This document shows, piece by piece, positions 906 through 16,624 of a stretch of DNA of 20,000 bases. The stretch is from an uncultured virus (IMG/VR IMGVR_UViG_3300010379_000002) (taxonomy: Duplodnaviria > Heunggongvirae > Uroviricota > Caudoviricetes), in the IMG/VR virus record IMGVR_UViG_3300010379_000002; one strand, 5' to 3'. The stretch's first letter is position 1. Each line of letters starts with the position of its first letter. Below the pieces are notes generated by a model, which saw only the letters and a list, made by a program, of their open reading frames with translations, ran no database searches and was not told the DNA's origin. Made by a program: the position numbers and the translations under genes.

Positions 906-907
906 CC

Positions 908-1351: not shown

Positions 1352-1353
1352 TT

Positions 1354-1542: not shown

Positions 1543-1702
1543 GCGGCTCACCGATTCTCGATACCGCGAACTCGTGTTACTTAGGGACAACATCCCCGCC
1601 GACTTGCTATGGGCGTGGCGGAATTGTTGTTGGAGTTCCGCATGTCAGAGCGGCAAAGCCAAAACCTGTCAACGCTGTTGGGAGAAGCGCGATGGCTGTT
1701 GA
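1532..1702 (+). CDS. small Cys-rich hypothetical protein (56 aa)
   Basis: Read manually: MVVERLTDSRY...CCWSSACQSGKAKTCQRCWEKRDGC; overlaps both neighbours. Confidence 0.5.
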   Translation: MVVERLTDSRYRELVLLRDNIPADLLWAWRNCCWSSACQSGKAKTCQRCWEKRDGC

Positions 1703-2165: not shown

Positions 2166-2359
2166 TCCACGAGGATGTGGTCACTTTGCTCGACACTCTT
2201 GCGTTTGGGGTCGTCGTCAGCATGGCTGTGTATCGCTCGATTGACGCTGTTTGGATCGGCGACTGGATCGGCATCTGGCGCGTGCTCGAAGTTCTTGTAG
2301 CTTTCGTCGTAGCCATCGTAGGCGCAAATCTCATAGGACAACATCTATGGGCGGGTTAA
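2162..2359 (+). CDS. small two-TM membrane protein
   Basis: ATGA overlap; two hydrophobic segments. Confidence 0.6.
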   Translation: MIHEDVVTLLDTLAFGVVVSMAVYRSIDAVWIGDWIGIWRVLEVLVAFVVAIVGANLIGQHLWAG

Positions 2360-2775
2360 GTCGGCGCAGTCTGTTCGCGGGATTGTTTACGGCGCCAGTC
2401 GCTATTGCAGCCGGGATGCCGCTCGGCATGTGGGAGCGGTTTCGGACGTATTGTGTTGGGTTCAGTGGGATCGTCCCTGTCGTCAACATGACGGTCGAGA
2501 ACACGGGGGAGTCTGCCTATGCAGCGCACAAGCGGCAATATCCATTTGGTGCGTACAAGACGGCGCGGGGTCAAACTATCGGTCGAGCCAGACACGCGGC
2601 GCTCAACCACGAACTCATGCAAGAGTACGGTTTGCCTGAGTTTCGAGACCTGAGCGCGTGGTCCAGGAACGTGCTTGAACAGGGGCGGGTATGTACGTGT
2701 TCCCGTCCGAACAGTCCTACGGCGAGCGTGTCGCACGGGAGTATTACGGATGGCAATAGTAGGCGATCTGATTAG
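2347..2775 (+). CDS. hypothetical protein with Tat-like N-terminus
   Basis: MGGLSRRSLFAGLFTAPVAIAAG. Confidence 0.55.
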   Translation: MGGLSRRSLFAGLFTAPVAIAAGMPLGMWERFRTYCVGFSGIVPVVNMTVENTGESAYAAHKRQYPFGAYKTARGQTIGRARHAALNHELMQEYGLPEFRDLSAWSRNVLEQGRVCTCSRPNSPTASVSHGSITDGNSRRSD

Positions 2776-2998
2776 TGCAATCGAAACGCTCCGAACAAGG
2801 GTGGTCGATCAAGACTCTCCGCGTCTTTATATGAACGATGCCGAGTACGTGTACTTCAAAGCGCACGAGTGGATTGACTTTGGAATCGGCATCGAGAAGC
2901 GCCGATTCACGAATGCGCAATGCTGTGCGGATACCGGCATTCCGGCGCATGTCGAAGTTCTTGTAACTCCGCCGACGTATCCAGGAGCGGCAACATGA
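2750..2998 (+). CDS. hypothetical protein
   Basis: GGAG RBS at 2738, ATG 2750, ATGA-coupled to next gene. Confidence 0.6.
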   Translation: MAIVGDLISAIETLRTRVVDQDSPRLYMNDAEYVYFKAHEWIDFGIGIEKRRFTNAQCCADTGIPAHVEVLVTPPTYPGAAT

Positions 2999-3156
2999 TC
3001 GAGGAAGCACTTTACTGTCTCGTCCGCATCGCCTTCGATCTGACGCGCCCGCTGTTAGCGGCGGAGCATCGCTGGAACCGGAACACGTGCGACGCGGTGC
3101 ACAATCTTGACATCGCACTCTTGGAGTTGGAGCACGCACATGGGCGACGTGGTTGA
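2995..3156 (+). CDS. hypothetical protein
   Basis: ATGA overlap, GGAG upstream. Confidence 0.5.
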   Translation: MIEEALYCLVRIAFDLTRPLLAAEHRWNRNTCDAVHNLDIALLELEHAHGRRG

Positions 3157-3559
3157 GTTCAAGAGGCCGAGCAAGCCGAGGACCCCGAGCAAGTTCGACG
3201 AGCTTTTTGGTTTCGCCGACCTGCCAGACGAGGACTACGAACAAATCCAAAAGACGCTGCAAGTGATCTTTGCCATGAGTGAGGACGAGGAATCTGTGAA
3301 TGTGATCCCGTTCCCGACGCGCCGCGACTTGGCTGAGGATGCGGCGGTTGAACTCGTCCGGATGATCGCCGACCGGCACGTCGCGGCTGGACTGCGACCG
3401 ACGCACGCGCTTAAGCGGATCAATCCAAAGGGCGAACCATTCATCGGTCGGTGCATTCTGTGCGGGCGCTCCGGCTTCACGGCAGAGGACGCACACAAGG
3501 ACTGCACCTATGGACGACCTGAAAACAGCCCTGAAAATCCTGTGGGACGGCGCGCGTAA
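3140..3559 (+). CDS. hypothetical protein with C-terminal CxxC
   Basis: GGAG RBS; MGDVVEFKRP...GRCILCG...DC. Confidence 0.65.
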   Translation: MGDVVEFKRPSKPRTPSKFDELFGFADLPDEDYEQIQKTLQVIFAMSEDEESVNVIPFPTRRDLAEDAAVELVRMIADRHVAAGLRPTHALKRINPKGEPFIGRCILCGRSGFTAEDAHKDCTYGRPENSPENPVGRRA

Positions 3560-3578
3560 GGATCCGATCAACGGCGCG

Positions 3579-3680
3579 ATGCTCCCGCTCATTGGCGTCG
3601 CCATTCTACTTTGGCTTTGGTGTCTGGGGTGGTTGACTTGGGATGTGATCCATGTGCTCGTATGCCATGATCTGTGCTGA
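3579..3680 (+). CDS. tiny hydrophobic protein (33 aa)
   Basis: MLPLIGVAILLWLWCLGWLTW...; fills the gap in the array. Confidence 0.35.
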   Translation: MLPLIGVAILLWLWCLGWLTWDVIHVLVCHDLC

Positions 3681-3855
3681 GCGCGCCTACACGATGCGCC
3701 TTAACGGCTTCACGTCGTCACTACGGTATACGTTCCCGGAGTGTGTTGCATTCATGCGGCGGATGCCGTACAAGCCAAAATCAAACTACAACGAAAAGGT
3801 CAAGATCGAAGTCTTGTTTGACGACGTGGTGATTTATACCGACATCCGATCATGA
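3667..3855 (+). CDS. hypothetical protein (start uncertain)
   Basis: ORF track; ATGA-coupled to next gene. Confidence 0.5.
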   Translation: MICAERAYTMRLNGFTSSLRYTFPECVAFMRRMPYKPKSNYNEKVKIEVLFDDVVIYTDIRS

Positions 3856-4049
3856 CGATAGACGAGGACATTGAGCGTCTCGAAGGTCCGCGCTGGTTGG
3901 TACTGGCACTACAAAGCGCCGAGACGAAGATGTGGAAACGCTCGTACCTGATGGCGCTCTACGCGCTCAACGTGGTACGGAGCCGCGCGCCTAAGCCGCA
4001 GCCCATGACGTTTTTCTACGACCCGCCGGGCAGTGAGTGGCGCGGCTGA
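3852..4049 (+). CDS. hypothetical protein
   Basis: ATGA overlap. Confidence 0.55.
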   Translation: MTIDEDIERLEGPRWLVLALQSAETKMWKRSYLMALYALNVVRSRAPKPQPMTFFYDPPGSEWRG

Positions 4050-4278
4050 TATGGTTAAGCGCGTCACGAAGTACCGGCGATACGTTCCCGCATATCGGAA
4101 AGACCTGCGCTGGCGAGCGACAACATGCAACCCGGCTTGGATTTTCGCGTTCCTCGAAGCGCGTGACCGGCTCCTTCGTTATAACTATCTCAGCAAAGTA
4201 GATATAACTGGTTTCGGCGGCTGGAAGGTTAACAGGGTGAGCCGGGCCGAGCTTGACAGGTTCTTTTCAGACGAGTAG
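4033..4278 (+). CDS. hypothetical basic protein (start uncertain)
   Basis: ORF track, fits the array. Confidence 0.5.
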   Translation: MSGAADMVKRVTKYRRYVPAYRKDLRWRATTCNPAWIFAFLEARDRLLRYNYLSKVDITGFGGWKVNRVSRAELDRFFSDE

Positions 4279-4318
4279 ACATCGCCGCACGTCAAACCCC
4301 TACGAGGAGAAGTCCCCT

Positions 4319-4441
4319 ATGACGATCTTACGATTGGTTGCATCCATTGTCGCCATCACGGCGGTCCTTACGTCGGGGCTGATGCAGTTCGTCGAGTCAC
4401 TTGCAAAGTCCGCGCCCGCAGCGATGGGAGGGCTTAAGTGA
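4319..4441 (+). CDS. small membrane protein
   Basis: AGGAG RBS; MTILRLVASIVAITAVLTSGL. Confidence 0.5.
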   Translation: MTILRLVASIVAITAVLTSGLMQFVESLAKSAPAAMGGLK

Positions 4442-4566
4442 CCCTCCCCACCGAACCGGGTGAGCGACTTGCCGCCGAGGAATACGAAATCATCAAAATG
4501 GTGATCGTGACTCTCGGCGTGGGAGCCGCCCTCGTGTTCTTGCTTGGCGGTCTCGGTCTGCTATGA
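4438..4566 (+). CDS. small membrane protein (42 aa)
   Basis: GGAGG RBS, GTGA overlap; hydrophobic C-terminus VIVTLGVGAALVFLLGGLGLL. Confidence 0.5.
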   Translation: MTLPTEPGERLAAEEYEIIKMVIVTLGVGAALVFLLGGLGLL

Positions 4567-5075
4567 AAACGGGGCGCACGCGCACCAAGCGTGCGCCTTC
4601 CCTTACCTGTTACGACTTGTACTCGGCATACGCCGATGTGCTCACGAGGAAAACGAAGATGCGTCTCATTGATTTCGTAGGTCCAGACAAAGGCTGGAAG
4701 CCGCGCTGGAATAAGCGCGTCGGCACGTACTGTTCGCCGCGCTGCGGCGCTGGCTGCACTAGAGCCGCTTGGCGGGAGGCATTTCAGGCTGGTAAGGCGC
4801 TCGCAGAGAAGATGGGCACCGGCTGGAAGTGGGTCGTTTGGGAAAACCTTGGCTGGCACTACAAAGCCGTCAAGGGCGTCGTCGAAATCTATCCGAATAT
4901 ACGGCACAAGAATCATCAGTTGAAGATCATCGGGTATACCTGCTTCATCAACAGCGCGCACCAATACATCGGAGACGGAAAATCGGCAAGCCTCGCGCTC
5001 GCGCGGGCGCTGTTGGGCGCGACCCGCGCCACCGACAAGATCATGAGTGACATAGGAGCGGCGGGAAATGGCTAA
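4563..5075 (+). CDS. phage hypothetical protein (alternative start 4659)
   Basis: YCSPRCGAGCT...WENLGWHY motif; GAGGA RBS before ATG 4659. Confidence 0.7.
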   Translation: MKTGRTRTKRAPSLTCYDLYSAYADVLTRKTKMRLIDFVGPDKGWKPRWNKRVGTYCSPRCGAGCTRAAWREAFQAGKALAEKMGTGWKWVVWENLGWHYKAVKGVVEIYPNIRHKNHQLKIIGYTCFINSAHQYIGDGKSASLALARALLGATRATDKIMSDIGAAGNG

Positions 5076-5562
5076 GATGCCGGAGCCGATCAAGACGAAA
5101 TCCGGCCGCACAATTCTGCCGGCGCCGCGTATGGAAAGCGAGACAGTGAGTCCGGCGAAGCGTCGCAAGCAATGGGGCACAGCATTTGCGGACACCGAGG
5201 CACGTGAACAGGTCGTTCGGCAGCGGACGCTCGCACAGCGTTGCATGATTCATGCCGACAAGATGCAAGGCGAAGGGTGGTACGTGACCGCGAATGTGCT
5301 GGCGGCTGCGGCGGAGGCGCTCGACGCCGCCGATACGCTGCGCAAGACTTTGCCGAGCCACTGGCACGATGATGCGGTTACGAACTTCGACGATGCGGTA
5401 AGTCCGCCCGGCATCGACGCGGGGACTGGTCTGCCCGGCGTTGGTTACCCGGCAAATCTTATCGACATGGAGACGCACTCTAAAGGTCGATCCGCGTGCA
5501 CGCCACAGCGACGGCGAAGTGCCGGGGCAAATCGCGGTCGGCGACTATCAGGTTCGTTTTAG
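5068..5562 (+). CDS. hypothetical protein
   Basis: AGGAG RBS, overlap with upstream gene. Confidence 0.6.
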   Translation: MAKMPEPIKTKSGRTILPAPRMESETVSPAKRRKQWGTAFADTEAREQVVRQRTLAQRCMIHADKMQGEGWYVTANVLAAAAEALDAADTLRKTLPSHWHDDAVTNFDDAVSPPGIDAGTGLPGVGYPANLIDMETHSKGRSACTPQRRRSAGANRGRRLSGSF

Positions 5563-5797
5563 TGAAAAAACCGCGCGGAAGGGACGGGAGGAGGGTTCCT
5601 GGGGTATTTATCTGCGAGACTACAACGTCCGGCTCGCTTTATTCGCCGAAAACAGTGCCAGCCTCCGCCGTGCATTGACCAAGATGTTCGATGCGGCTCA
5701 TGCGGCGAAGAAATCCGGGAGCGGGATACGTGGCATTATAGCGCGCTCGGAGGCATACTCTCCGCCGCGCCACAAGTCCGGGAGGATCAAGGATTGA
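5441..5797 (+). CDS. hypothetical protein (start uncertain)
   Basis: ORF track; the 3' part fills the gap before 5794. Confidence 0.45.
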   Translation: MVTRQILSTWRRTLKVDPRARHSDGEVPGQIAVGDYQVRFSEKTARKGREEGSWGIYLRDYNVRLALFAENSASLRRALTKMFDAAHAAKKSGSGIRGIIARSEAYSPPRHKSGRIKD

Positions 5798-5982
5798 GCG
5801 CAGCCCTTCGGTCGAGACGAATAGCGAACGAAAAAGCCGCGCGCGAGCGAGCGCGCGAGCGAGTACATATTCCGGAAAACCGCGTGTTGGATCGAAACTA
5901 TGTGATCCCGCTCGGCTTGCAATGCAAGTTGGTCTCGATTATAGTTCATATCGAGGAAGGCGGCACGGCTGACGGTAGTGAG

Positions 5983-6602
5983 CATGCTTATCCGGTTTAG
6001 ACATGCAGGAGCTAGATGTTGATGACTGATAAAATTGACGACGAAATGCGCAAGCGGCTGGCTGCCATACTTGAGGCTGGCATATCTGATGATACCATGA
6101 AGGCCATCAATAAGCAGGTCGAGCATATCCGGTGTGACATCGAGGATGATGTGATGTACCGGCTAAAGGACGATCTCGCCCCAAACCTCGCCGCTTTTGC
6201 TGCCGATATGGCACAGCGCGCCGTCGAAATGTTGCTTGAGGGTAATGACGATCAAATGCGGCGCTACCTGTCCTGCGAAAAGCGCGGCGAGGATGGTCAA
6301 TATATTGGGTGGACCGGGCGCTATGATCCAAAAGCATGGGGTGCGCGGCGGGATATTTCCGAACAGCACCCAATCATTCATGGCAAACTATTCGAGCAGG
6401 GGTGCGTTGCGCTGCGCAAGCGGATTGTGGACGCCCACCGCGAGTTGCTGGCAAACGAGCGCATTCTTGATCTTGAAGATCAGGTTAAATCACTGGTCGC
6501 CCAAGTGAACAAGGCTAACGCCGAGAAAGAAAGAATGTGGGAGCGTCTTGGTCATCTTGAAACGCGGGGATAGTAGTTGCATGTCTAAACCGGATAAGCA
6601 TG
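5983..6602. mobile_element. non-autonomous gene cassette 1 (620 bp)
   Basis: Perfect 25-bp TIR CATGCTTATCCGGTTTAGACATGCA (5983-6007 / 6578-6602); 8-bp direct repeat GTAGTGAG (5975-5982 / 6603-6610). Confidence 0.92.
6016..6573 (+). CDS. cassette 1 cargo, helical/coiled-coil hypothetical protein
   Basis: AGGAG RBS at 6007-6011; 185 aa; fills the element; no transposase motif recognised. Confidence 0.8.
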   Translation: MLMTDKIDDEMRKRLAAILEAGISDDTMKAINKQVEHIRCDIEDDVMYRLKDDLAPNLAAFAADMAQRAVEMLLEGNDDQMRRYLSCEKRGEDGQYIGWTGRYDPKAWGARRDISEQHPIIHGKLFEQGCVALRKRIVDAHRELLANERILDLEDQVKSLVAQVNKANAEKERMWERLGHLETRG

Positions 6603-6789
6603 GTAGTGAGGGCGGGCACCCGTTCGATTGGATCGCCCTTCGCGGGCTGCTCGCCGATCCCGAAGTTCGAGCCTGGGTTGCCGAAATGACTCGGCTCGGG
6701 TTCGCGCCAGTGAAACGCGAACGGGATCGGAGAATCGCAGACGCTTGGCGAGAGCACGATCAGAAAGTCGCAAAGGCTCGGAGGAAGTG

Positions 6790-7110
6790 ATGACTCAGGA
6801 ACAACTCGTGACAGAGGCCGACGAGGCGGACGACGATGCTTTCGATACCATGATGTCGGCGCTCGACGTGTTTTTCCATGTTGCCAAGTGCCCGAACCAC
6901 TCGAAAGAGGAACGGCAAGAGGCACTCAAAGAAGCGGCGGATGCTTTCGCAGCCTACGTCGGCTATGACCCGCTCACCGGACCGGAAAATGGGACGGAAG
7001 CTGCGGCGAGAGAAGTTGTCGCAGACCTTATCGAGAAATATGTACCGAAGGACGTAGTGCCGGACGGAATTCCGGTGCCAAACGCTCCGACCAGCAACAA
7101 GGTGCATTGA
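6790..7110 (+). CDS. acidic hypothetical protein
   Basis: GGAGG RBS, TGATG overlap. Confidence 0.65.
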   Translation: MTQEQLVTEADEADDDAFDTMMSALDVFFHVAKCPNHSKEERQEALKEAADAFAAYVGYDPLTGPENGTEAAAREVVADLIEKYVPKDVVPDGIPVPNAPTSNKVH

Positions 7111-7544
7111 TGTCATACACTCGGGCCGAAGCAGTCAAGATCATTAACGCCTACAACACCCTGCGCACATGGGCTTTGGAGATTGTCAGCGATGTGCCAT
7201 ATACGGCGTCGGTTGAGTATACCGACAACCCGTCTATCAGCATCAGCGGCGACGAAGTGATCCTGTTTTGGAAGGAATACGACTCGGACTATTACGGCAG
7301 CGGCTCTTTGGAGGAAAACGAAGCAAGATTCCCGGTCGCCGCCCTGGTATTCAATGCCAAAGAATTACGGGCTACGCGGGAGAAAGTGAAGGCGAAGGAG
7401 GCGGAGCGCCAGAAGAAAGTCCGCGCCGCCGAGCGGGCGGTCGAAAAGGATCGGCAAGACGCACGCGACCGCACCGAGTTCATCCGGCTCACCAACAAGT
7501 TTAAGCACGGGATCGAGTTCCCGGAAGGTGACACGAGGAGCTAA
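7110..7544 (+). CDS. hypothetical protein with C-terminal charged helix
   Basis: TGATG overlap. Confidence 0.7.
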   Translation: MSYTRAEAVKIINAYNTLRTWALEIVSDVPYTASVEYTDNPSISISGDEVILFWKEYDSDYYGSGSLEENEARFPVAALVFNAKELRATREKVKAKEAERQKKVRAAERAVEKDRQDARDRTEFIRLTNKFKHGIEFPEGDTRS

Positions 7545-7575
7545 GACAGCGGTACATCTACCCCAGGAAACAGTG

Positions 7576-7755
7576 ATGTTGAAAAAGCCACCGAACATGA
7601 GCGACGAGGATTTCGGCCGCTTCCTCGCCGACTGCGCACTCGGTCCGCTCAGTGGACCGATGGAGTTTGACCGGGGCAATGTTATCATCCTGTTAGCCGC
7701 AGCCGTGATAATCGGTGGGATCATCGTGGCGCATCTGTTAGGGTATATTTCATGA
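7576..7755 (+). CDS. small membrane protein
   Basis: AGGA RBS; C-terminal TM VIILLAAAVIIGGIIVAHLLG. Confidence 0.55.
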   Translation: MLKKPPNMSDEDFGRFLADCALGPLSGPMEFDRGNVIILLAAAVIIGGIIVAHLLGYIS

Positions 7756-8000
7756 CCCCTGTCCGCGTAATTGGCTATGATCCCGACACGAAGAAGCACT
7801 GGCAGGCGTTTCGTGGCGAGCGTAACAGCAAGGTATGGGCGTGGGTCGAGATTGCCCATGCCGACATCATGGATCACCCCGACACGGCGGGCGATATAGT
7901 TTTCGTGTTCCCGAAAGGCGGCGCGAAGGCTGCGCCGAAAAGTCCTCCGGCTGCTATGAAGATGGGACCACCTGTGCCAGCTATCGTAACCGAGGTATAA
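7752..8000 (+). CDS. hypothetical protein
   Basis: ATGA overlap. Confidence 0.6.
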   Translation: MTPVRVIGYDPDTKKHWQAFRGERNSKVWAWVEIAHADIMDHPDTAGDIVFVFPKGGAKAAPKSPPAAMKMGPPVPAIVTEV

Positions 8001-8007
8001 AATGAGA

Positions 8008-8438
8008 CATGCTTATACGGTTTAAACATGCGAACACAATAGGTGGAATATGAAAGACGCGAAAGGACACGGCAGCGACGCGCACTCCGCAGGCGTTGAA
8101 CAAGTTGGTCAGCCAAAGACCTACCAATGGACTAAGGATGCGAACGGGGTGCATCATCTTGTTATGGGCAACGAGTCGCCTATCGCCTCAGTTTTCAAAG
8201 CGGGGAGCGAAAATCCGCCGCTGTCGAGCGGGCCAACACCAAAGGGCTATTATTACGGGCAGCTTCACAAGGACTTCAATACTGGCGGCTCGCGTGCCGG
8301 GAATTGGGGTCTGCTCGGTAGCGTACAGGCGGCAAAACGATGGGTTGAGACGAAAGCTGCGAACAGTTGGGACGCGCCTAACATTAGCAATCCTGCGCAC
8401 AAGCGGTAGGGATTGCATGTTGAAACCGGATAAGCATG
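8008..8438. mobile_element. non-autonomous gene cassette 2 (431 bp)
   Basis: 24-bp TIR with 2 mismatches (8008-8031 CATGCTTATACGGTTTAAACATGC / 8415-8438); 8-bp direct repeat AAATGAGA (8000-8007 / 8439-8446). Confidence 0.9.
8050..8409 (+). CDS. cassette 2 cargo, hypothetical protein (MKDAKGHGS N-terminus)
   Basis: AGGTGG RBS; 119 aa; fills the element. Confidence 0.75.
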   Translation: MKDAKGHGSDAHSAGVEQVGQPKTYQWTKDANGVHHLVMGNESPIASVFKAGSENPPLSSGPTPKGYYYGQLHKDFNTGGSRAGNWGLLGSVQAAKRWVETKAANSWDAPNISNPAHKR

Positions 8439-8440
8439 AA

Positions 8441-10765
8441 ATGAGAGCCGATCCGTATCAGGCGCGTGCGCGCGAACTTTGCAAAGCAGACGGCAAGGAC
8501 CCGGACAGCCGAGTCTATTCGTTTGTAGGCATCAATGTCGATCACGGGACTCACGTAGATCAAAAACGGGGGCGTCCGGCGTGGTGTGACTACCGCGATG
8601 CGGCGCGCGCCGAACACAACAAGCGTGAGACCGACGCACTCGCCGAGTCTATCGCGACCTTCCGGCCGCAGGAACTTAAATACCAGGATCGACCACTCAT
8701 GGTCATGGGTCAGGATCACGATCAATCGACGCGCGATCAGATGCGCAATTGCATGAAGGTCGGCAATGTGGTCGGCGGCGCACTTTGCGCAGACGGGCAC
8801 TTGGGTTATGCGCAGTCAGTCGGCGGCATCATCGCCTATGAGGATCAGATCAGCGTGTCCGGCGTCGGCTTCGACATCGCCTGTTTAGACGAGGAGACCG
8901 AGTTTCTTCATCGTGATGGGTGGACTCGAATGGACCAGTGGAGCGGTCAATATGTTGCTCAGTATGACCCATACAGCGGATGTGCGTCTTTCGTGCAACC
9001 GGATGAATATATTGTGCGACCCGCCGAGCGTTTCCTGCATTTCAAGACGAAGTTTGGCATAGATCAGATGCTTACGCCGGATCATAGAATGCTAGTTTAT
9101 GCTCCCGGACCTAAGCGTGAGTTTGCTCAAGGTCGAGTTGTCATAGCGCAGGATTTTGCGGATCATCATAATAGTCTTGTTCTCGGCGTTGATGACCGGA
9201 TCAATACCATATTTGAAATACATCACCATGGCGAGGTTGCTTACACGGACGAGGAACTTGCGGTTATCGTAATGACCTGCGCGGACGCTTATCTTGAGCA
9301 TCGTGAGGGTCGAGGTATCGGAACCGCGATACTATCTCTTAAGAAAGATCGCAAGATACGACGTGCTCGACAGTTGTTGAACCTCGCGGGGGTGCCGTTC
9401 AGCGAGAGTGGCCCTAATAAGTTAGGCTACACGACATTTCGGTATATGGCATTTCCGGTCGGCAAGAAGTTGTGGGAGTTGTGGGGAGCCAGTCCTCGTC
9501 AGTTGCGGGTCATAGCTGACGAGGTTTTGTTGTGGGACGGTAATCTCGATGCGCAATGCTTCTACACCCGCGTTAAAGGGAGTGCGGATTTTATTCACTA
9601 CGCCTTTGCTGCGACCGGGCGGCGATCTGTCATGCGTCAGGATGGTGTCGATTATCGTGTCTTTGCTCAACCGAATACCAAGGTCGGGCTTAAAGCTACG
9701 CCGCACAAAGCGATTAAAGAAGTCGCGGCGACGCCCGGACAAAAAGCATTTTGCTTTCGGGTTCCAACAGGGTTCTTTGTAATCCGGCGAGGCGGTCAGA
9801 TCGCGGTCACCGGCAACTGCGGTAACATGGCAGTGCGGCTTGCTATGCCGTACTCAGTTGTCAAGGATCGGGTGTCCGATCTTACTCGGGAAATTGCAAA
9901 CACGATTTCATTCGGTGTCGGTCGCACCAATGACGAGCGCGTAGAGCATGAACTGTTTGACGACGCCGAGGCTTGGTATAAAGCCGACCGTGAGGACTTC
10001 AAAGGGAAGGCTCATGCGCAGCTTGGGACGGTCGGCGGCGGCAATCACTATGTTGACTTGTTCGAGGACGAGGCTGGTCTCGTGTGGATCGGTGTTCACT
10101 TCGGTTCGCGCAGTCTCGGGCATTCGTCCGCGAAGAAGTACATCGAAGCAGCCGGCGGCAAGGACGGCATCCACGTTCCGCCGACTGTGCTCGACCTAAA
10201 CAGCGAGCTAGGTCAACGATACCTAGCAGCCATGAGCCTTGCTGGCCGCTACGCTTATGCCGGTCGCGAATGGGTCGTCGAGCGCGTGCGCAAGATACTC
10301 GGCGGTCCCGCTGTGGTCGATACAGTGCACAACCATCACAACTATGCTTGGCTTGAGGAACACAACGGTCGCGCACTGTGGGTCGTGCGCAAGGGCGCGA
10401 CGCCCGCGTTCCCTGGACAGCGTGGCTTCGTCGGCGGCTCAATGGGCGACAACGCAGTGATTATCGAGGGCGCCGATAGCAACTACTCGCGAGCGATGTA
10501 CTTCTCGACGATCCACGGCGCCGGTCGGCTGTTTGGCCGAAAGGAAGCGAAGCGCCGCTTCGCGCGTCCCGAAATGGATGCATGGCTCCGTGACAAGGGC
10601 GTGTTTCTCGTCGGCGGCGACCTGGATGAGTCGCCGATGGCATACCGCCGTCTGCCTGATGTGCTCTCGGAGCACGTCGGTACGATCAGAGTGCTTCACA
10701 CCTTGCGACCATTCTCGGTCGTGATGGCTGGCGAAGGTGAGTACGATCCATACAAGGAAGGATGA
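8441..10765 (+). CDS. rtcB: RtcB RNA ligase with intein (alternative in-frame start 8417 inside the TIR)
   Basis: ADGHLGY, VGFDIA|CG, GTVGGGNHY, VHFGSR, HNHHNY, RKGATPA, STIHGAGR (His-GMP motif), DESPMAYR. Confidence 0.95.
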   Translation: MRADPYQARARELCKADGKDPDSRVYSFVGINVDHGTHVDQKRGRPAWCDYRDAARAEHNKRETDALAESIATFRPQELKYQDRPLMVMGQDHDQSTRDQMRNCMKVGNVVGGALCADGHLGYAQSVGGIIAYEDQISVSGVGFDIACLDEETEFLHRDGWTRMDQWSGQYVAQYDPYSGCASFVQPDEYIVRPAERFLHFKTKFGIDQMLTPDHRMLVYAPGPKREFAQGRVVIAQDFADHHNSLVLGVDDRINTIFEIHHHGEVAYTDEELAVIVMTCADAYLEHREGRGIGTAILSLKKDRKIRRARQLLNLAGVPFSESGPNKLGYTTFRYMAFPVGKKLWELWGASPRQLRVIADEVLLWDGNLDAQCFYTRVKGSADFIHYAFAATGRRSVMRQDGVDYRVFAQPNTKVGLKATPHKAIKEVAATPGQKAFCFRVPTGFFVIRRGGQIAVTGNCGNMAVRLAMPYSVVKDRVSDLTREIANTISFGVGRTNDERVEHELFDDAEAWYKADREDFKGKAHAQLGTVGGGNHYVDLFEDEAGLVWIGVHFGSRSLGHSSAKKYIEAAGGKDGIHVPPTVLDLNSELGQRYLAAMSLAGRYAYAGREWVVERVRKILGGPAVVDTVHNHHNYAWLEEHNGRALWVVRKGATPAFPGQRGFVGGSMGDNAVIIEGADSNYSRAMYFSTIHGAGRLFGRKEAKRRFARPEMDAWLRDKGVFLVGGDLDESPMAYRRLPDVLSEHVGTIRVLHTLRPFSVVMAGEGEYDPYKEG
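8882..9817 (+). mobile_element. intein in RtcB (312 aa) with probably degenerate LAGLIDADG endonuclease
   Basis: Starts CLDEETEFL; block B LTPDHRM; block C-like LAVIVMTCADA; block E-like EVLLWDG; ends FCFRVPTGFFVIRRGGQIAVTGN|C. Confidence 0.92.
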
Positions 10766-11091
10766 CAACGATGTTTTTGAAGATTATGTCGGGCGAGAAT
10801 GCACCTGACGGTGATACTCGCAAAACGTTTCGGATTCTCGACGACGTGACCGCAGCGGACTTTCGACGCGACTCGGATGGAAAGCCACACGTGGCGGTTA
10901 CGTTCCGCGACAAGCCCGGAGTTCCGCCGATAACGGAGACTTTCGATCCGAGCGGTAACTGCTACCTCTTGAACGATGGCGGTGACACCGTTGCCGCATT
11001 CGGGGTCTCGCCCTATGTGCCCCACAAGGGCGAGCGGGGGCAGACTGGTAAGATGGTTCCCGCTGGCGGCGCCAAAGAGACCGGTCTCTAA
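10762..11091 (+). CDS. hypothetical protein coupled to rtcB
   Basis: ATGA overlap; MFLKIMS...NCYLLNDGGDTV. Confidence 0.75.
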   Translation: MTTMFLKIMSGENAPDGDTRKTFRILDDVTAADFRRDSDGKPHVAVTFRDKPGVPPITETFDPSGNCYLLNDGGDTVAAFGVSPYVPHKGERGQTGKMVPAGGAKETGL

Positions 11092-11095
11092 AACG

Positions 11096-11129
11096 TCACC
11101 CGGCGCGGTATAGATACCGCGTCGGGTGA
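11096..11129. terminator. long hairpin, possible terminator or processing site
   Basis: TCACCCGGCGCGGTAT-AG-ATACCGCGTCGGGTGA, 16 bp with one G-U; no U-tract on the + strand. Confidence 0.5.
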
Positions 11130-11244
11130 TACAAAACCTCGGCTATAATCCCTCATTCATCCGATGTTAACTATCATCGCAAGTTCCGCTAGGTCGGGAC
11201 CGGCGTCGGGGCTATATTCCTGGCATGAGAAACAGGAGTAGGAA

Positions 11245-11481
11245 ATGCGTCTCAACAAGTGGGTCTACTGGCACACTGAATGCGATCCGACCTGGGCGGA
11301 CATTGCCAACGCTACTGGTCGCAATTCTGCCGGCTTGGGCGACGATCCGCCCGAAGAAATCGTCGCGGTCGGCGTCGCAATGGCGCGGCGCGGTGTCAAC
11401 CCGTACCGTATCGAGGAACCATCAACCGTCGCCGACTGCGAAGCGCACTTCGGTCCGGAGTCCAGCCATGACGCGCGCTGA
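11245..11481 (+). CDS. hypothetical protein
   Basis: AGGAG RBS. Confidence 0.65.
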   Translation: MRLNKWVYWHTECDPTWADIANATGRNSAGLGDDPPEEIVAVGVAMARRGVNPYRIEEPSTVADCEAHFGPESSHDAR

Positions 11482-11707
11482 ACCGTCACTAGATCGTGAC
11501 GGCAAAGACGTGTGGTACGGTCAGTATTGCACCGGTCGTTTTTGGCACACGGTTCGCCATGACGACGGTCAGGCTGTCTGTTTCAACTCCGAGCAGGAGG
11601 CTACCGTTGCCGCGCGCAATGAGCGGTTGATCCACTTGCACACTTCGCCTCGGCGCGCTCGGGCCGACGTTGAGGCTGAGCATTTAGCGGTCCGCTACGC
11701 AGGATAA
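11468..11707 (+). CDS. hypothetical protein
   Basis: GGAG RBS; MTRAEPSLDRDG. Confidence 0.6.
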   Translation: MTRAEPSLDRDGKDVWYGQYCTGRFWHTVRHDDGQAVCFNSEQEATVAARNERLIHLHTSPRRARADVEAEHLAVRYAG

Positions 11708-11717
11708 CACTATGAAC

Positions 11718-12603
11718 CATGCTTATCCGGTTGTCACACACAAACGCTGAGAGCCACTAGATGTTGTGTCGATTATGGAGCCGAAAATGACCGCGCGTAA
11801 AATAGCCATTGAAAACGAAATCTTACGCGGCATCGTAGGATCGACTTCTCATGGCACGGCCATTGACGGACAGGATGACCGGGATGAAATGGGCGTCTTT
11901 ATCGAACCGCCGGAATATGTCTGCGGTCTGACGCCGCTCGATCATTACATCTATCGGGATAAGCCAGAGGGCGTTCGTAGTGCGGCGGGAGACCTTGACC
12001 TTACGATGTATAGCCTTCGTAAGTTTTGCCGCTTGGCAGAGCAGGGGAACCCGTCTGTGGTCATCCTACTGTGGCTCCCGGAACATATTGTCAGGACCGA
12101 ACTAGGTCGCGCTCTTCTCAAGATGCGTGAGGCATTTATCAGTCGCGACTCCGGTAATCGCTTCCTTGGCTATCTCGTCGCCCAAAAGATGAAGATGAAA
12201 GGCGAGCGGACGGCCACCACGAAACGACCAGAACTGATCGAGAAATACGGCTACGATACAAAATTCGCGATGCACGCTCTCCGGTTGGCGTTTGAAGGCA
12301 TCGAAATGTTAACGCATCGCCGAGTCACGTTGCCGGTAACCGAGCCAAATCTTTCGATCTTGCGCGGCGTTCGTACCGGACAGTATGAACTTGGCGATGT
12401 ATTTGGGATGATCGACCGCGCGGAAGCACAACTTCGCGAGCTATTGAAGGATTGCAACTGGAAAACTGATCGCGCTCGGATCAACGCTTTCATGGTTAAG
12501 GCGCACCAAATCCACTGGCAATCCCGGTTTAGTAGACGTGGGTTTGGCCACCGCAGCCAGGGCCACAAGATGTAGGACTGTGTGTGACAACCGAATAAGC
12601 ATG
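11718..12603. mobile_element. non-autonomous gene cassette 3 (886 bp)
   Basis: 25-bp TIR with 1 mismatch (11718-11742 CATGCTTATCCGGTTGTCACACACA / 12579-12603); 8-bp direct repeat CTATGAAC (11710-11717 / 12604-12611). Confidence 0.92.
11787..12575 (+). CDS. cassette 3 cargo, Pol-beta superfamily nucleotidyltransferase (RlaP/Nuc-transf-like)
   Basis: VGSTSHG...DDRDEMGVF (GS...DxD), YSLRKF, GNPS, RPELIEKYGYDTKFAMHALRL; GGAG RBS at 11777. Confidence 0.88.
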   Translation: MTARKIAIENEILRGIVGSTSHGTAIDGQDDRDEMGVFIEPPEYVCGLTPLDHYIYRDKPEGVRSAAGDLDLTMYSLRKFCRLAEQGNPSVVILLWLPEHIVRTELGRALLKMREAFISRDSGNRFLGYLVAQKMKMKGERTATTKRPELIEKYGYDTKFAMHALRLAFEGIEMLTHRRVTLPVTEPNLSILRGVRTGQYELGDVFGMIDRAEAQLRELLKDCNWKTDRARINAFMVKAHQIHWQSRFSRRGFGHRSQGHKM

Positions 12604-12605
12604 CT

Positions 12606-12857
12606 ATGAACAGCGCGAAAAACTACATCGTCATTTGCCGTGCGGACACCGCGCCTGACGGCACCAAAGGCGAGTATGTTTGTGCCACGCATCGGCTGTT
12701 CGATGCCGAACAAGCCGCCGCCTACGCCATGACGGTCGCGCGCTCGCGCGAACCACGCATCGTGACCACCGCTGAATATCTGCAAGTCTGTGAACGCTTC
12801 CGCGAAAACGATTCGTTGCGCAGGCAGCTAGTAGATGTGGAGGTTCCTCTTGGGTGA
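12606..12857 (+). CDS. hypothetical protein; its ATG lies in the cassette 3 TSD
   Basis: ORF track; ATG within CTATGAAC. Confidence 0.65.
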   Translation: MNSAKNYIVICRADTAPDGTKGEYVCATHRLFDAEQAAAYAMTVARSREPRIVTTAEYLQVCERFRENDSLRRQLVDVEVPLG

Positions 12858-13068
12858 AGTTGTCCCGTTCCGACCGAAGCAGTTTGCTCCGTCAGTGCCG
12901 CCGCGAGTCTATGACACCGGTCCGCTGACGTGTGATGAGCTTTTGCGTGTCGAGGAACTTCTGCTTCGACCGCTTCCAACAGTATTCACGAACGGCAGCG
13001 CGTCGGACGAACCGATGCTACCGTGCCCGCTCACCGACGTTTCGTGGCTAGAGGATGATGTGTCATGA
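12850..13068 (+). CDS. hypothetical protein
   Basis: GGAGG RBS, TTG start, MGEVVPFRPK. Confidence 0.55.
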   Translation: MGEVVPFRPKQFAPSVPPRVYDTGPLTCDELLRVEELLLRPLPTVFTNGSASDEPMLPCPLTDVSWLEDDVS

Positions 13069-13364
13069 AGGACCCCGCATTTGAGTGTCACGACTGTCAC
13101 GCAGATACGTTCGCAGGTATGGAATACTACATGGTTGAGCACGATGTTTGGGCGAAAGCGAGTGCGGCGAAGCCGAAGAAGCACGGAATGCTTTGCATCG
13201 GGTGCCTCGAAAGTAGACTCGGACGACAACTCACACCGGCCGATTTCCCGACGCGCATTCCGCTCAATCATATGATCGCCTTCGATCCGCGCACGAGTGA
13301 CCGGTTATTGTCTCGGCTGCACGGCATCCCCGAGGCTGACGTGCGAAAGGCAGTTATCAGATGA
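13065..13364 (+). CDS. phage hypothetical protein with two CxxC motifs
   Basis: CHDC...EYYMV...VW...LCIGCLESRLGRQLTPADF. Confidence 0.75.
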   Translation: MKDPAFECHDCHADTFAGMEYYMVEHDVWAKASAAKPKKHGMLCIGCLESRLGRQLTPADFPTRIPLNHMIAFDPRTSDRLLSRLHGIPEADVRKAVIR

Positions 13365-13555
13365 ACCAGTCCCGCTTTCCCTGCCGTGAATGCGGCAAAG
13401 TTAAGGTCAAAGACGAGCGCACGCGCGCCGTCAAAGGTGGTTTCGTCTGCGGCGAGTGCACGCTGTTCCCCTATATGGATTTCACACACGCCGCGCGCGA
13501 ACCCGATCAAAGCTCTACAGGAAGCAACCGAACGGTTAACCAAGGACAAAACTAA
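13361..13555 (+). CDS. small Zn-ribbon-like protein
   Basis: CREC...CGEC; ATGA overlap. Confidence 0.55.
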   Translation: MNQSRFPCRECGKVKVKDERTRAVKGGFVCGECTLFPYMDFTHAAREPDQSSTGSNRTVNQGQN

Positions 13556-13558
13556 CCC

Positions 13559-13587
13559 TTGACCAGTCCGGGGCTTTGGACGACACT
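13559..13587 (+). promoter_or_regulatory. possible sigma70-like promoter
   Basis: TTGACC-N17-GACACT upstream of an AGGAGG RBS. Confidence 0.4.
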
Positions 13588-13616
13588 CAGGATCATCACT
13601 TTAGGAGGACGACGAC

Positions 13617-13820
13617 ATGAGAAAACTTCACCACACCGATCCCAAGTCTCTCGGACTTCTCAATGCCCGAGTGGCTGACGAACAAGCCCTTGCCTACGCG
13701 CAATCGAAGCGCAACGCCGCCGAGTGGGGGCGCCGGGCAGTTCAGGCTATTGAACGCGAGGACTATGCGTTGGCTGTAAATCTGGCGGCTCAGGCTAATC
13801 TTGAGTTAAAGCGCGCGTGA
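13617..13820 (+). CDS. hypothetical protein
   Basis: Strong AGGAGG RBS. Confidence 0.7.
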   Translation: MRKLHHTDPKSLGLLNARVADEQALAYAQSKRNAAEWGRRAVQAIEREDYALAVNLAAQANLELKRA

Positions 13821-13832
13821 GGTAGCGCGCTC

Positions 13833-13878
13833 GCGGCGAGCGCCCAATGCTCCGGGGGGCACTCGCCGCCTCCATTTT
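13833..13878 (+). terminator. GC-rich hairpin, possible terminator/attenuator
   Basis: GCGGCGAGCGCCC (13833-13845) / GGGCACTCGCCGC (13857-13869), 12 of 13 bp, then CTCCATTTT. Confidence 0.45.
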
Positions 13879-13889
13879 AAGGGAGTGTC

Positions 13890-14261
13890 ATGAGAGTCAA
13901 AGAACTTAAAGCGGCGCTCAAAAACCGGGCTGTGGTACTGGCTATGATCGCGTACAAACTTCTTCGCGTGCGCAAAGACAAGTCGCTCGGGCCGCTGTTC
14001 ATCAATCGAAGTCAGCGTATCCCGGTCGGCAAATGGATCGCCGCCGAGCCGCATCGGACGCCCGGCTACGCCTTTCGGCCCGGCTGGCATTGTTGCTCGA
14101 AGCCGGTCGCGCCGCACTTGTCAAAGAAGGGTCGGCGGTGGTACAAGATCGAAATCGGCATGATGCACTATGAGGAGCATCGCCGACCGCAGAGCCAAGG
14201 TGGTCTGTGGTATGTCGCGGAATTTATGAAAGTGATCGGACCCCTGCATCATGTCGTATGA
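13890..14261 (+). CDS. phage hypothetical protein
   Basis: GGGAG RBS; YKLLRVRKDKSLGPLFINR...GYAFRPGWHCC...APHLS...QGGLWY. Confidence 0.75.
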   Translation: MRVKELKAALKNRAVVLAMIAYKLLRVRKDKSLGPLFINRSQRIPVGKWIAAEPHRTPGYAFRPGWHCCSKPVAPHLSKKGRRWYKIEIGMMHYEEHRRPQSQGGLWYVAEFMKVIGPLHHVV

Positions 14262-14727
14262 GTACCACGGCGAAGCTCGGCGCGGGCACTACACCGCCGA
14301 ATATGAGATTTGGCGGGCGATGAAAGGGCGGTGCTATAACCCGAACAACATTTCATTCCCCCGCTACGGTGCGCGGGGCGTAAAAGTTTGTCGGCGGTGG
14401 TGTCGGTCATTTACCGCGTTCTTAACTGACGTGGGGCGGCGTCCGTCGTCTCGGCACTCTCTTGACCGCTGGCCGGACAAACACGGCAACTATGAGCCGA
14501 ACAATTGCCGATGGGCGACTCGACGTGAACAGGGCGCGAATACTCGCAGCAACAGATTGATTTCTTTCGGCGGCCGAACTCAGCATTTAGAAGATTGGGC
14601 GCGCGAGCTAGGAGTGAAGCACAGTATACTTTTCGAGCGAATAGAAAAGTGGCCGCTCCGCAAGGCACTCACGACACCAAAACGAAATCCGAATGATGGG
14701 TGGACCGGCTATAGGAGGGCGGCATGA
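14251..14727 (+). CDS. HNH-type phage homing endonuclease
   Basis: EYEIWRAMKGRCYNP...YGARGVKVC..W...SLDR...GNYEPNNCRWAT..EQ..N. Confidence 0.85.
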   Translation: MSYEYHGEARRGHYTAEYEIWRAMKGRCYNPNNISFPRYGARGVKVCRRWCRSFTAFLTDVGRRPSSRHSLDRWPDKHGNYEPNNCRWATRREQGANTRSNRLISFGGRTQHLEDWARELGVKHSILFERIEKWPLRKALTTPKRNPNDGWTGYRRAA

Positions 14728-15134
14728 AGCGCCCCGAAGGGCTGAGCAAACGAGACCTACTTGTGGGGGTTCTGGCCGGTGGCGCCGTCTCGGCCGACAT
14801 CCACCCGGCGCTCGACATCGCCGCGACCGCGTGCGAGCCGCTATTCGAGGATTACATCCCGGACATGCGGCGCTGGTATCCGATCATTGATCCGGCACAC
14901 GCCCGCGCCGCCATCGCCTACGCCGGTCGCGCTTTCCACCACGGCGCGCTCACGCCGGAGGAGTATGATTGGATTTGTGACAAGGCGCGCAAAGCAATCA
15001 TCCACGGCAAGCCGTCACGTAACTTCGCGCTCGCCGACTTTCCAGGTCGTCTCGGAGCGGGAAAAGTTCGAGAGATTGGTACAGGGCAAGAGGTAGTCAT
15101 AGTAGGAGAGGGCGATGATCCGCAAGCTGCATAA
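14724..15134 (+). CDS. hypothetical protein
   Basis: AGGAGG RBS, ATGA overlap; YPIIDPAHARAAIAY motif. Confidence 0.65.
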   Translation: MKRPEGLSKRDLLVGVLAGGAVSADIHPALDIAATACEPLFEDYIPDMRRWYPIIDPAHARAAIAYAGRAFHHGALTPEEYDWICDKARKAIIHGKPSRNFALADFPGRLGAGKVREIGTGQEVVIVGEGDDPQAA

Positions 15135-15438
15135 ACGCAAGACTCATACCGGTCTGACAAGAGAACAGTTGGTCAATGAGATTTACAGGCTAAACGATGA
15201 AATCGAGAAGGCGGCCAAATCACCAGCCGTCATCGTGCCACCGCTGCGCGCGGTCGAGTGGAACCTCGAAGCCGCCGCCCGCGTTGGCTATGAGGGCTTC
15301 TTGCGGCTTGCTACGAAAGACCGGGACTTAAACAAAGATGCCCGTGTCGTGGGATGGGAGAAGCTCGATCCGGACATCCGCGCGAACTGGAAAATACTCG
15401 CGCGAGAGGTTATCACCGCCGCCCTTAAACCCACTTGA
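15115..15438 (+). CDS. hypothetical protein
   Basis: AGGAG RBS. Confidence 0.65.
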   Translation: MIRKLHKRKTHTGLTREQLVNEIYRLNDEIEKAAKSPAVIVPPLRAVEWNLEAAARVGYEGFLRLATKDRDLNKDARVVGWEKLDPDIRANWKILAREVITAALKPT

Positions 15439-15464
15439 CGCGCGACCCGTTGAGTGCATAAGAT
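15435..15464 (+). promoter_or_regulatory. sigma70-like promoter
   Basis: TTGACG-N18-TAAGAT. Confidence 0.5.
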
Positions 15465-15484
15465 GCGACAGTGGAGTTCGGAAA

Positions 15485-15622
15485 ATGAGTGAAGGTCGCA
15501 AGATGATTTTGGTCGGCGTGGCGTTCTTGACGCTGCTCGCCGCCGTTACTTTTCTCGGTTTCGCATTCCAGGGAGTCTCCCTTCAACCGCACTACTACAC
15601 ACGAGCGGGGGACCCGATATGA
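15485..15622 (+). CDS. small membrane protein
   Basis: GGAG RBS; ILVGVAFLTLLAAVTFLGFAF. Confidence 0.55.
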   Translation: MSEGRKMILVGVAFLTLLAAVTFLGFAFQGVSLQPHYYTRAGDPI

Positions 15623-15969
15623 GCAAAACATTCGAGTTCGACGATGGGCAACCTTGCAACAGTTACGACACGCGCTCGGGGCGTGTTACGACATGGACCC
15701 GAGAAGAATTCGTGTACGCGGTCAACGCGTACAGTAAGACAAAGGGGCCTCGCCAAGCGGCTGCAATCATCCAACAGATTTGTGGTATGGCCGATCCGAC
15801 GATGGTCCCCTCCTATTCGTTTGGCGCCATCATCGGCATAATGGCTCAACAGTTAACCGGGCGCGAGGAGCGCGACCACGCGAGCAACTATCGGTCAAAC
15901 ATTCTCGGACGTGTTGGGCGACGGACTCACCCACTTCTCAAACTACCAGCCCCAAAGGACGATGCATGA
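15619..15969 (+). CDS. hypothetical protein
   Basis: ATGA overlap. Confidence 0.65.
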   Translation: MSKTFEFDDGQPCNSYDTRSGRVTTWTREEFVYAVNAYSKTKGPRQAAAIIQQICGMADPTMVPSYSFGAIIGIMAQQLTGREERDHASNYRSNILGRVGRRTHPLLKLPAPKDDA

Positions 15970-16331
15970 GTGAATTAGATTTCGGTCCGCCGATTCGGCT
16001 TCCCTGCTCTCCGTTTACTCAGTCGCCGCCAGCGGTGACAAAGCTCAAGCGCGGAGGCGTCGGCAAGCAAGGCAACAGCGGACCATCCGGCGCCGCTCGT
16101 CGCGTGCGCACACCCCCACGCGCCATGCGCAATAAGGTCGGCGTGCATGTTCCATGGCCCGACCGGGGTCCGGCGATTCGGGACCCGCGCGACCCGTTCA
16201 TCCTCGCGTACCAGGAGGCGCATCGTAATCCTGCGGTCGCCGTATCCCCTCGCAAGGCAGTCTTTGCGGCGGCGATCAAGAAACTCAAGCGTTTGGAGGT
16301 GCAACGCTTAGAGGCGCAAGCCAGTGAGTAA
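15966..16331 (+). CDS. basic hypothetical protein
   Basis: AAGGA RBS, ATGA overlap. Confidence 0.55.
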   Translation: MSELDFGPPIRLPCSPFTQSPPAVTKLKRGGVGKQGNSGPSGAARRVRTPPRAMRNKVGVHVPWPDRGPAIRDPRDPFILAYQEAHRNPAVAVSPRKAVFAAAIKKLKRLEVQRLEAQASE

Positions 16332-16623
16332 GTTGGAAAAACGTCTCCGGGAAATCGCCGAGCAGGGTGAGCTTGTCGGTCTCAGCATCGTTCCGGTTGC
16401 CGGAAAGGGACCGAATGATCTTGTATTTGTCGCGACCTACCAGCCAGCCACGCGCTACGGCGCCGCTGTCGCGCGAAATGCCGATCCGGTCACGGCAATG
16501 TTGGAGGCGCTCGACGGCGAACTGCCGCCAGAAGTTGGAGAATTAGTCACGCCGCTGACGCACACGCCGCGTAAAAAACCACAGGCCCCGGAACCACCGC
16601 CGGTCGAACCATGGGAAGTGTGA
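16324..16623 (+). CDS. hypothetical protein
   Basis: GAGG RBS, GTG start. Confidence 0.6.
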   Translation: MSKLEKRLREIAEQGELVGLSIVPVAGKGPNDLVFVATYQPATRYGAAVARNADPVTAMLEALDGELPPEVGELVTPLTHTPRKKPQAPEPPPVEPWEV

Positions 16624-16624
16624 A

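Follow-up and report, generated by a model that had tools for sequence, protein, structure and literature searches.

The stretch of DNA considered here (the window; 20,000 nucleotides [nt] of an uncultured virus of the Caudoviricetes, IMG/VR record IMGVR_UViG_3300010379_000002) carries three small elements that share their ends and differ in the single gene that each one encloses. Element 1 (5983-6602, 620 bp), element 2 (8008-8438, 431 bp), and element 3 (11718-12603, 886 bp) all read on the + strand and are delimited by their ends, terminal inverted repeats (TIRs), and target-site duplications (TSDs). In a search that allowed up to two mismatches, the end core CATGCTTATCCGGTT occurs six times in the window, on the + strand at 5983, 8008, and 11718 and on the - strand at 6588, 8424, and 12589; four copies are exact and two have one mismatch. 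The expectation from shuffled sequence is 0.04, and six copies were attained in 0 of 200 shuffles. The TIRs match over 25 of 25 nt in element 1 (100%; 5983-6007/6578-6602), 22 of 24 in element 2 (92%; 8008-8031/8415-8438), and 24 of 25 in element 3 (96%; 11718-11742/12579-12603). Each of the three is flanked by identical copies of its own 8-mer: GTAGTGAG at 5975-5982 and 6603-6610, AAATGAGA at 8000-8007 and 8439-8446, and CTATGAAC at 11710-11717 and 12604-12611. An earlier inspection of the letters alone (hereafter, the sequence-only reading) had described the six ends, the three TIR pairs with these identities, and a perfect 8-bp direct repeat around each element. It had also claimed one co-oriented open reading frame (ORF) per element and no transposase in the window. 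All of this was borne out: the ORF finder places a single + strand ORF in each element, almost filling it, and Pfam scans of 37 window ORFs (9 + 28) found no transposase.

The three cargos are different. Cargo 1 (6016-6573, + strand) encodes a 185-amino-acid (aa) protein of unknown function, for which Pfam, PHROGs, and ESM Atlas yielded nothing above noise. Cargo 2 (8050-8409, + strand; 119 aa) starts with the N-terminal leader MKDAKGHGS and was assigned to no family by Pfam or PHROGs. Cargo 3 (11787-12575, + strand) is a nucleotidyltransferase of the RlaP type (PF10127, 5.9e-26; phrog_388 nucleotidyltransferase, 1.5e-52). The ORF finder begins this last gene at GTG 11766 (11766-12575, 269 aa), and the likely start is ATG 11787, which would give 262 aa; GGAG lies upstream of this ATG, at 11777-11780.

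Relatives of the elements in viruses and bacteria

The exact 15-mer end core is present in an estimated ~370 stretches of the viral collection, and 150 viral loci were fetched. Pairing of each + end with the next - end (up to two mismatches, 100-5000 bp apart) gave 92 pairs, which represent 63 unique elements of 184-1983 bp. A perfect 8-bp TSD flanks 46 of them (three are from the window), four have a TSD with one mismatch, and 13 are mispaired neighbours or nested copies. Seven of the 46 perfect-TSD elements are 1.7-2.0 kb long and bear a transposase (L018, L043, L026, L045, L015, L008, and L066). Six of these seven encode a protein of 343-366 aa, with 60-81% identity in the alignment and many invariant columns. 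Pfam scans of five of the six full transposases found both PF12760 (IS1595 zinc ribbon) and PF12762 (DDE_Tnp_IS1595; 1e-28 to 7e-35), and the three tested with NCBIfam (L015, L018, and L066) match NF033547, “IS1595 family transposase,” at ~1e-55. The elements with a full transposase (1.7-1.8 kb) carry one to three small passenger ORFs upstream of the transposase and in the same direction; in L026, L043, L045, L015, and L018, transposase and passenger lie within one inverted-repeat pair, which is what defines a transporter insertion sequence (IS). The other 39 perfect-TSD elements have no transposase, and 37 of them have a single ORF of at least 40 aa. L008 (3001-4983, 1983 bp) has the same ends, a perfect TSD, and three to four small ORFs. 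Its protein of 307 aa retains the zinc ribbon of IS1595 and the beginning of the transposase, after which HNH_3 and HTH domains take the place of the DDE core.

The family is also bacterial. A profile built from six transposases matches ~1800 stretches (an estimate) in reference genomes. In the best 80 of these ~1800 loci (57-88% aa identity), nearly all from Alphaproteobacteria and mostly from metagenome-assembled genomes, paired C[ATG]TGC[CT]TATCCGGTT ends (15-nt core with up to three mismatches) are present in 70 and a perfect 8-bp TSD in 49, with 47 distinct 8-mers. Among the 49 copies with perfect TSDs, 42 are simple IS of 1.07-1.17 kb, and seven are 1.39-1.78 kb long. The simple ~1.1-kb copies are multicopy in Alphaproteobacteria. 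The closest annotated IS is the “IS1595-like element ISAcr1” of Acidiphilium plasmids (64% aa identity; 1080 bp), whose ends match at 13 of 15 positions.

The same 15-bp core and 8-bp TSDs thus bracket elements that encode an IS1595 transposase, and the window elements are therefore passenger-only derivatives that resemble mobile insertion cassettes (MICs). Overall, we are highly confident that all three are non-autonomous, passenger-only derivatives of a phage-borne IS of the IS1595 family, for which ISAcr1 is the closest named member. This supports the sequence-only reading, which had proposed MIC-like, transposase-less passenger cassettes of a DDE transposase, and specifies the family as IS1595. 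That reading had pointed to an autonomous copy with a DDE transposase as something to look for, and six viral elements with the same core and 8-bp TSDs fit this description. Its claim that density and cargo diversity are unusual was overstated, given that other viral contigs likewise carry several copies and that the 39 transposase-less cassettes have differing cargos.

A DNA methyltransferase or Mom gene is the cargo in five of these 39 cassettes (Mom, two N6/N4 methylases, and two D12 methylases; L009, L034, L071, L013, and L037), and a passenger of the autonomous copy in L026 encodes a C5-methylase-like protein of 216 aa. Such recurrent DNA-modification cargo hints at an anti-restriction role. 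In L062 (1253-2408), IS1595 ends with a perfect TSD enclose TnpB (OrfB_IS605 plus a Cas12f1-like TNB domain) as the sole gene, and so an RNA-guided nuclease gene sits inside the shell of another transposon.

Insertion sites, end design, and origin of the cargos

Element 1 lies within what appears to be a small phage ORF on the + strand, of which reading frame analysis gives a 5′ part of 63 codons with a TTG start (5794-5982) and a 3′ part of 59 codons (6611-6790). By arithmetic on the coordinates, the two parts form one reading frame once 628 nt are subtracted. The upstream part extends five codons into the TIR and terminates at TAG 5998-6000, and translation of the downstream part could restart at an in-frame ATG (6581) in the right TIR. 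Elements 2 and 3 each lie in the few bases that separate an upstream stop codon from the next start codon. The left TSD of element 2 overlaps the stop TAA of the upstream ORF (7998-8000), and its right TSD includes ATG 8441, the start of an RtcB RNA ligase gene. The left TSD of element 3 begins 2 nt past the stop TAA of the upstream ORF (11705-11707), and its right TSD includes ATG 12606, the start of an 83-codon ORF. Incidentally, the RtcB gene (8441-10765) includes a probable intein of 312 codons (window 8882-9817), with a Cys start and a ..GN end followed by Cys. An RtcB with 55% identity on contig L173 is without exactly this putative intein stretch; Pfam named no intein domain in the RtcB of the window at E<=0.01. 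Residues 141-396 of this RtcB match phrog_32482.

Comparison of the ends of the 39 cassettes, oriented by cargo, indicated that the ends are bipartite, with a ~25-nt terminal repeat followed by a subterminal block at ~32-45 nt. The start-side block is CTAGATGTTGTG; the stop-side block, CTACATCTTGTG, is an imperfect inverse of it. In element 3, the terminal repeat and the start-side block CTAGATGTTGTG make up a 5′ end module of 49 nt (11718-11766, + strand). The ATG of this block (11761) opens a nine-codon upstream ORF, which runs to TGA 11788-11790 and overlaps the likely start of cargo 3; the stop TAG of cargo 3 is within the stop-side block. In element 1, the conserved end module (..AGGAGCTAGATG..) includes AGGAG (6007-6011) and the cargo ATG (6016), and the cargo stop TAG (6571-6573) falls 4 nt short of the right TIR. 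The autonomous copies L066, L043, and L188 have ends close to the subtype of element 1, GGTTTAGACATGCA. Over its first 25 nt, the right end of element 2 equals (25/25) the end next to the transposase in the autonomous L043 element.

In all seven transposase-bearing viral copies, the passenger-proximal end has TTGAC[AT] at positions 14-19, a 17-nt spacer, and a TA-rich hexamer that resembles a -10 box; in five of the seven, TGC stands directly before this second hexamer. A predicted sigma-70-like, inward-facing promoter is thus built into the passenger-proximal ends of the autonomous copies. Its spacing is not kept in the window cassettes. Seven promoter-like sites were found in the region, with 3.7 expected, and none at the window TIRs was convincing; neither these nor terminator-like sites are concentrated in the TIRs. 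The cassettes of the window are probably expressed by read-through from phage promoters.

The target sites of the 39 cassettes follow a pattern. TSD positions 2, 3, 6, and 7 are A or T in 31-34 of the 39, and the flanks favor a purine at -3 (34/39), T at -2 (18/39), A at +2 (25/39), and a pyrimidine at +3 (29/39). A symmetric, AT-rich target of this kind suits what would be expected of a DDE transposase, and it would direct insertions towards stop/start junctions in phages rich in G+C. Insertion points fall outside ORFs of at least 70 aa in 10 of 39 cases, compared with 8.2% of 7800 random positions, and this intergenic preference can be no more than suggestive, given how many spurious ORFs arise at the G+C content of the window. 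Orientation is decidable for 12 of the 46 elements, and 11 of the 12 are co-oriented with their neighbours; like the intergenic statistic, this count rests on crude ORF calls.

The cargos are ordinary phage genes wrapped in IS ends, as follows from homologues and paralogues that lack TIRs. Cargo 1 has homologues at two loci in other viral contigs (49-58% aa identity) and cargo 3 at ten (44-78%), all of them without TIRs; no end core was found at up to three mismatches, nor any convincing flanking inverted repeat. The similarity ends at the gene borders, and the flanks are unrelated. Cargo 2 is the eleventh gene of a leader family in its own phage. The other ten lie within ~5.5 kb, outside the window, and TIRs flank none of the ten; one of these resident paralogues is 71% identical to cargo 2 in DNA. 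The family is also present in 27 non-self viral loci, 26 of them with no end core nearby; in the remaining one, L043, the leader gene is the first passenger of the autonomous element. The claim of the sequence-only reading that these elements capture genes is accordingly supported indirectly, by the TIR-less homologues of cargos 1 and 3 and the ten paralogues of cargo 2. One possible route of cargo wrapping or swapping would be recombination within the conserved leader or the end modules.

It should be noted that the leader family has features of its own. The eleven leader sequences are found at 8050-8083 of the window and at 2518-7800 of L268 (~16.5-21.8 kb of the phage contig). The leader, MKDAKGHGS(D/N/E), is mostly followed by a Gly/His-rich stretch that ends in G(V/I)xQ(V/I)G and then by unrelated bodies of ~50-160 aa. 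A possible role is that of a tag for targeting or processing.

Mobility and competing explanations

Two other assemblies are 99.98%-100% identical to the window, and both have all three elements. One is a viral contig of 44,028 bp (L151/G001; 99.98%-100% identity), in which positions 1-14037 correspond to 5964-20000 of the window; the other is a metagenome contig of 24.9 kb (L172; 99.98%). On the 44-kb contig, genes for a portal protein (phrog_145, 4.6e-106) as well as for a head scaffolding protein (phrog_206, 3.7e-36) are present, and the replicon that hosts the elements is therefore a phage. Its completeness is estimated by CheckV at 42%. The sequence-only reading had suggested a scan of the whole genome for end pairs; the end core on the 44-kb contig occurs solely as the six copies of the window, none of them unpaired. 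A 7.5-kb stretch occurs in runs of seven studies, from peat and lake water metagenomes, and no named GenBank phage gave a megablast match to 5000-13500. The G+C content of the window is 57.6%, and the nearest counterparts of its RtcB come from a Microcystis phage and a Sinorhizobium phage. The bacterial relatives described above would fit an alphaproteobacterial host. The phage also has two endonuclease VII-type genes, at 908-1351 of the window (PF02945, 2.9e-14) and at 11622-12359 of L268 (phrog_2633, 1.7e-18).

A transposase-less sister cassette has moved recently, to judge from its two copies. This 365-bp cassette is present at two sites (L005 and L081) on different contigs, in opposite orientation and with 98.3% identity; the TSDs differ (CTATATTT and AATGGATA) and the flanks are unrelated. 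The ends of element 3 are also widespread. Its 5′ module is 92%-96% identical to cassette ends in unrelated viral contigs, and in three lake metagenomes the summed contig depth in the bin of this module was 1807, 2408, and 2031, with ~1-20 in other bins. Contigs break off immediately outside 11718 and immediately inside 11766, and their loose ends agree with the consensus at only 0.43-0.5; such low agreement around this module implies many insertion sites and many cargos. Metagenome contigs also join 11766 to 12563, which points to cassettes that share both end modules and have a cargo other than cargo 3. For X12, there was no contig cover over 11775-12527; because no contig joins the two sides of that gap, it carries no weight for or against an empty site.

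Several results weigh against the interpretation of the elements as mobile IS1595 derivatives. Empty sites in related phages, which the sequence-only reading had looked to as support, were not found for any of the three insertions, because every assembly of the phage carries all three elements. The only relatives retrieved, using the protein of 7107-7544 against viral contigs and the RtcB N-extein against metagenome contigs, were the same phage with its elements and L173 (1.6 kb, with no usable flanks). When both flanks of the 46 elements were compared by BLAST with every locus fetched, none had the flanks side by side. Among 15 of the 29 joints in four runs there was no precise-excision or empty-allele joint (contigs drop rare variants), and no second-site copy of any window cassette was seen in the homologue searches. 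A six-frame search of the 44,028-bp contig gave no match to PF12762 at E<=1, and none of the 46 elements is an autonomous copy with the exact end subtype of element 3. Similarly, no longer homologue of 5794-5982 was found at E<=0.01, leaving the undivided ORF unconfirmed by homology, and the crude ORF calls behind the orientation and intergenic statistics count on the same side.

These results bear most directly on the possibility that the elements are genuine IS1595 derivatives that were inserted once, in an ancestor of the phage, and are no longer mobilized. This could well be so, although we would sooner doubt it than accept it. It would account for junctions that are present in all three independent assemblies and in contigs of four further runs, and for the failure to find an empty allele, a second-site copy, or a transposase in 44 kb. 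However, the near-perfect TIRs and three perfect TSDs argue for recent insertion, the sister cassette has moved recently, and in the same lakes the end module occurs in extreme abundance and next to many flanks. In addition, 58% of the phage genome is unseen. We infer that the cassettes may still be active in this phage.

Explanations that dispense with IS1595 transposition fare worse. The repeats could be regulatory or gene-boundary sequences of the phage (promoter, terminator, or operator stems around accessory genes known as morons), as would be consistent with insertions at gene boundaries, cargos co-oriented with phage genes, and the sigma-70-like promoter in the ends of the autonomous copies. 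We give this almost no credence: perfect 8-bp duplications flank 46 of the 63 elements, IS1595 transposase genes lie between the same ends in phages and at 47 different sites in bacterial chromosomes, and promoter- or terminator-like sites are not concentrated in the TIRs of the window. Only slightly less improbable is the idea that other machinery (for instance integron-like site-specific recombination, homing by an endonuclease, or recombination of the phage at the conserved ends) is responsible and the link to IS1595 coincidental. The exchange of cargos between identical ~49-nt end modules could be read in this way, as could the HNH domain that replaces the DDE domain in L008. Yet Pfam scans of the window ORFs found no homing endonuclease gene in or beside the cassettes, and no integrase or attC-like site was seen there either (no search aimed specifically at attC was made). 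Duplications of a fixed 8 bp at many unrelated, AT-rich sites are a hallmark of DDE transposition and not of site-specific recombination or homing; recombination may explain the exchange of cargos, not their insertion.

Under the derivation from an IS1595-family IS that we prefer, each cassette would be inserted as a unit by a DDE transposase of the IS1595 type. The enzyme would bind the ~25-bp terminal repeats, which are accompanied by a second conserved block ~32-45 nt in. The target, AT-rich and roughly palindromic, would be cut with an 8-bp stagger and joined to the ends, and gap repair would leave the 8-bp duplication. Because the cassettes do not encode it, the enzyme must presumably come in trans; candidate sources are the unsequenced part of the phage, a co-infecting phage, or the chromosome of an alphaproteobacterial host, any of which could hold a full-length copy. 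The full-length relatives are transporter IS with the order end, passenger gene(s), transposase, end, and the cassettes resemble the same arrangement minus the transposase. The cargo lies in the direction of phage transcription and fills the space between the modules, with its ribosome-binding site and start codon in or beside the end module.

A broader proposal, to which we would commit ourselves only tentatively, is that the cassettes may form a standardized, transposon-based platform for gene exchange among phages, a functional analogue of integron cassettes built on IS1595 ends. In such a platform, the ~49-nt end modules would bring their own translation start and stop signals, and the AT-rich stop/start preference would let any ORF enter a phage operon without breaking it. 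The cargos would be drawn from phage genes, among them members of leader-tagged families (the MKDAKGHGS family is an example) and DNA-modification or RNA-repair genes that might counter host defences. They would pass between unrelated phages that share a habitat, and full-length copies in the host or in phages would supply the enzyme.

Significance and comparison with known systems

The way in which phages acquire small accessory genes (morons) between conserved genes is poorly understood, and here a mechanism can be read from the sequence: a transposase of the IS1595 type would insert ready-to-express single-gene cassettes, with many cargos, at gene junctions. Beyond methyltransferases and Mom, the cargos of the family include TnpB, an RNA-repair nucleotidyltransferase, and proteins of unknown function. 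Few sequences in the lake metagenomes where the phage occurs are repeated as often as the end module of element 3. This suggests a quantitatively important gene flow between environmental phages. In practice, searching for the ends should provide a catalogue of mobile phage accessory genes, one that is likely enriched in counter-defence functions.

Mycobacteriophage mobile elements (MPME1 and MPME2) are ultra-small: they span ~0.4 kb between their TIRs, enclose a single small ORF, have 11-bp inverted repeats, and are not known to make an 8-bp TSD. Compared by this general description, they share with the window elements a small size, TIR boundaries, one ORF, and residence in phage genomes, and differ in having one conserved ORF where the cargo is varied here. 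MITEs (miniature inverted-repeat transposable elements) are likewise non-autonomous, bounded by TIRs and TSDs, and derived from IS. However, MITEs are non-coding and usually shorter than ~300-500 bp, whereas each of the window elements has an ORF of 119-269 aa, and because they are coding they are not MITEs. An integron gene cassette is marked by an attC recombination site, a tyrosine-recombinase integrase close by, and no TSD; the window elements have TSDs, and Pfam scans of the window ORFs found no integrase family.

MICs consist of IS ends around one or more passenger genes, with no transposase, and their movement depends on the cognate enzyme in trans. The window elements, with IS ends, a passenger gene, and no transposase, have this structure. 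They differ from the described case in family (IS4/IS231 there, IS1595 here), in hosts and replicons, and in the dozens to hundreds of different single-gene phage cargos found here. The sister cassette present at two sites is indirect evidence of mobilization in trans. An example of a MIC is MIC231 of IS231 in Bacillus cereus; MICs are mentioned in PMC3281130, and the “transporter IS” (tIS), an IS with passenger genes, is a concept found in PMC7986276.

For the IS1595 family itself, the literature gives an 8-bp TSD as a family criterion (PMC8101967) and reports 8-bp, AT-rich duplications in an experiment with the family member ISEc69 (PMC7835479). The window elements and IS1595/ISAcr1 have ends of the form C.TGC.TATCCGGTT in common, along with TSDs of 8 bp in AT-rich targets. 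To this, the full-length relatives in phages add a zinc-ribbon plus DDE_Tnp_IS1595 transposase, with 64% aa identity to ISAcr1, and passengers upstream of it. The window elements differ in being without a transposase, in residing in a phage, and in having a single phage-type gene fitted between end modules of ~45-49 nt; because they encode no zinc-finger DDE_Tnp_IS1595 transposase, they are neither autonomous IS1595 members nor transporter IS. No paper on IS1595-derived cassettes in phages was found in a literature search that left out most subscription journals. The kind of element is thus known in principle, from the transporter IS of the IS1595 family and from MICs, and its mechanism is ordinary; the points of interest are the scale, the standardized one-gene format, and the phage setting.

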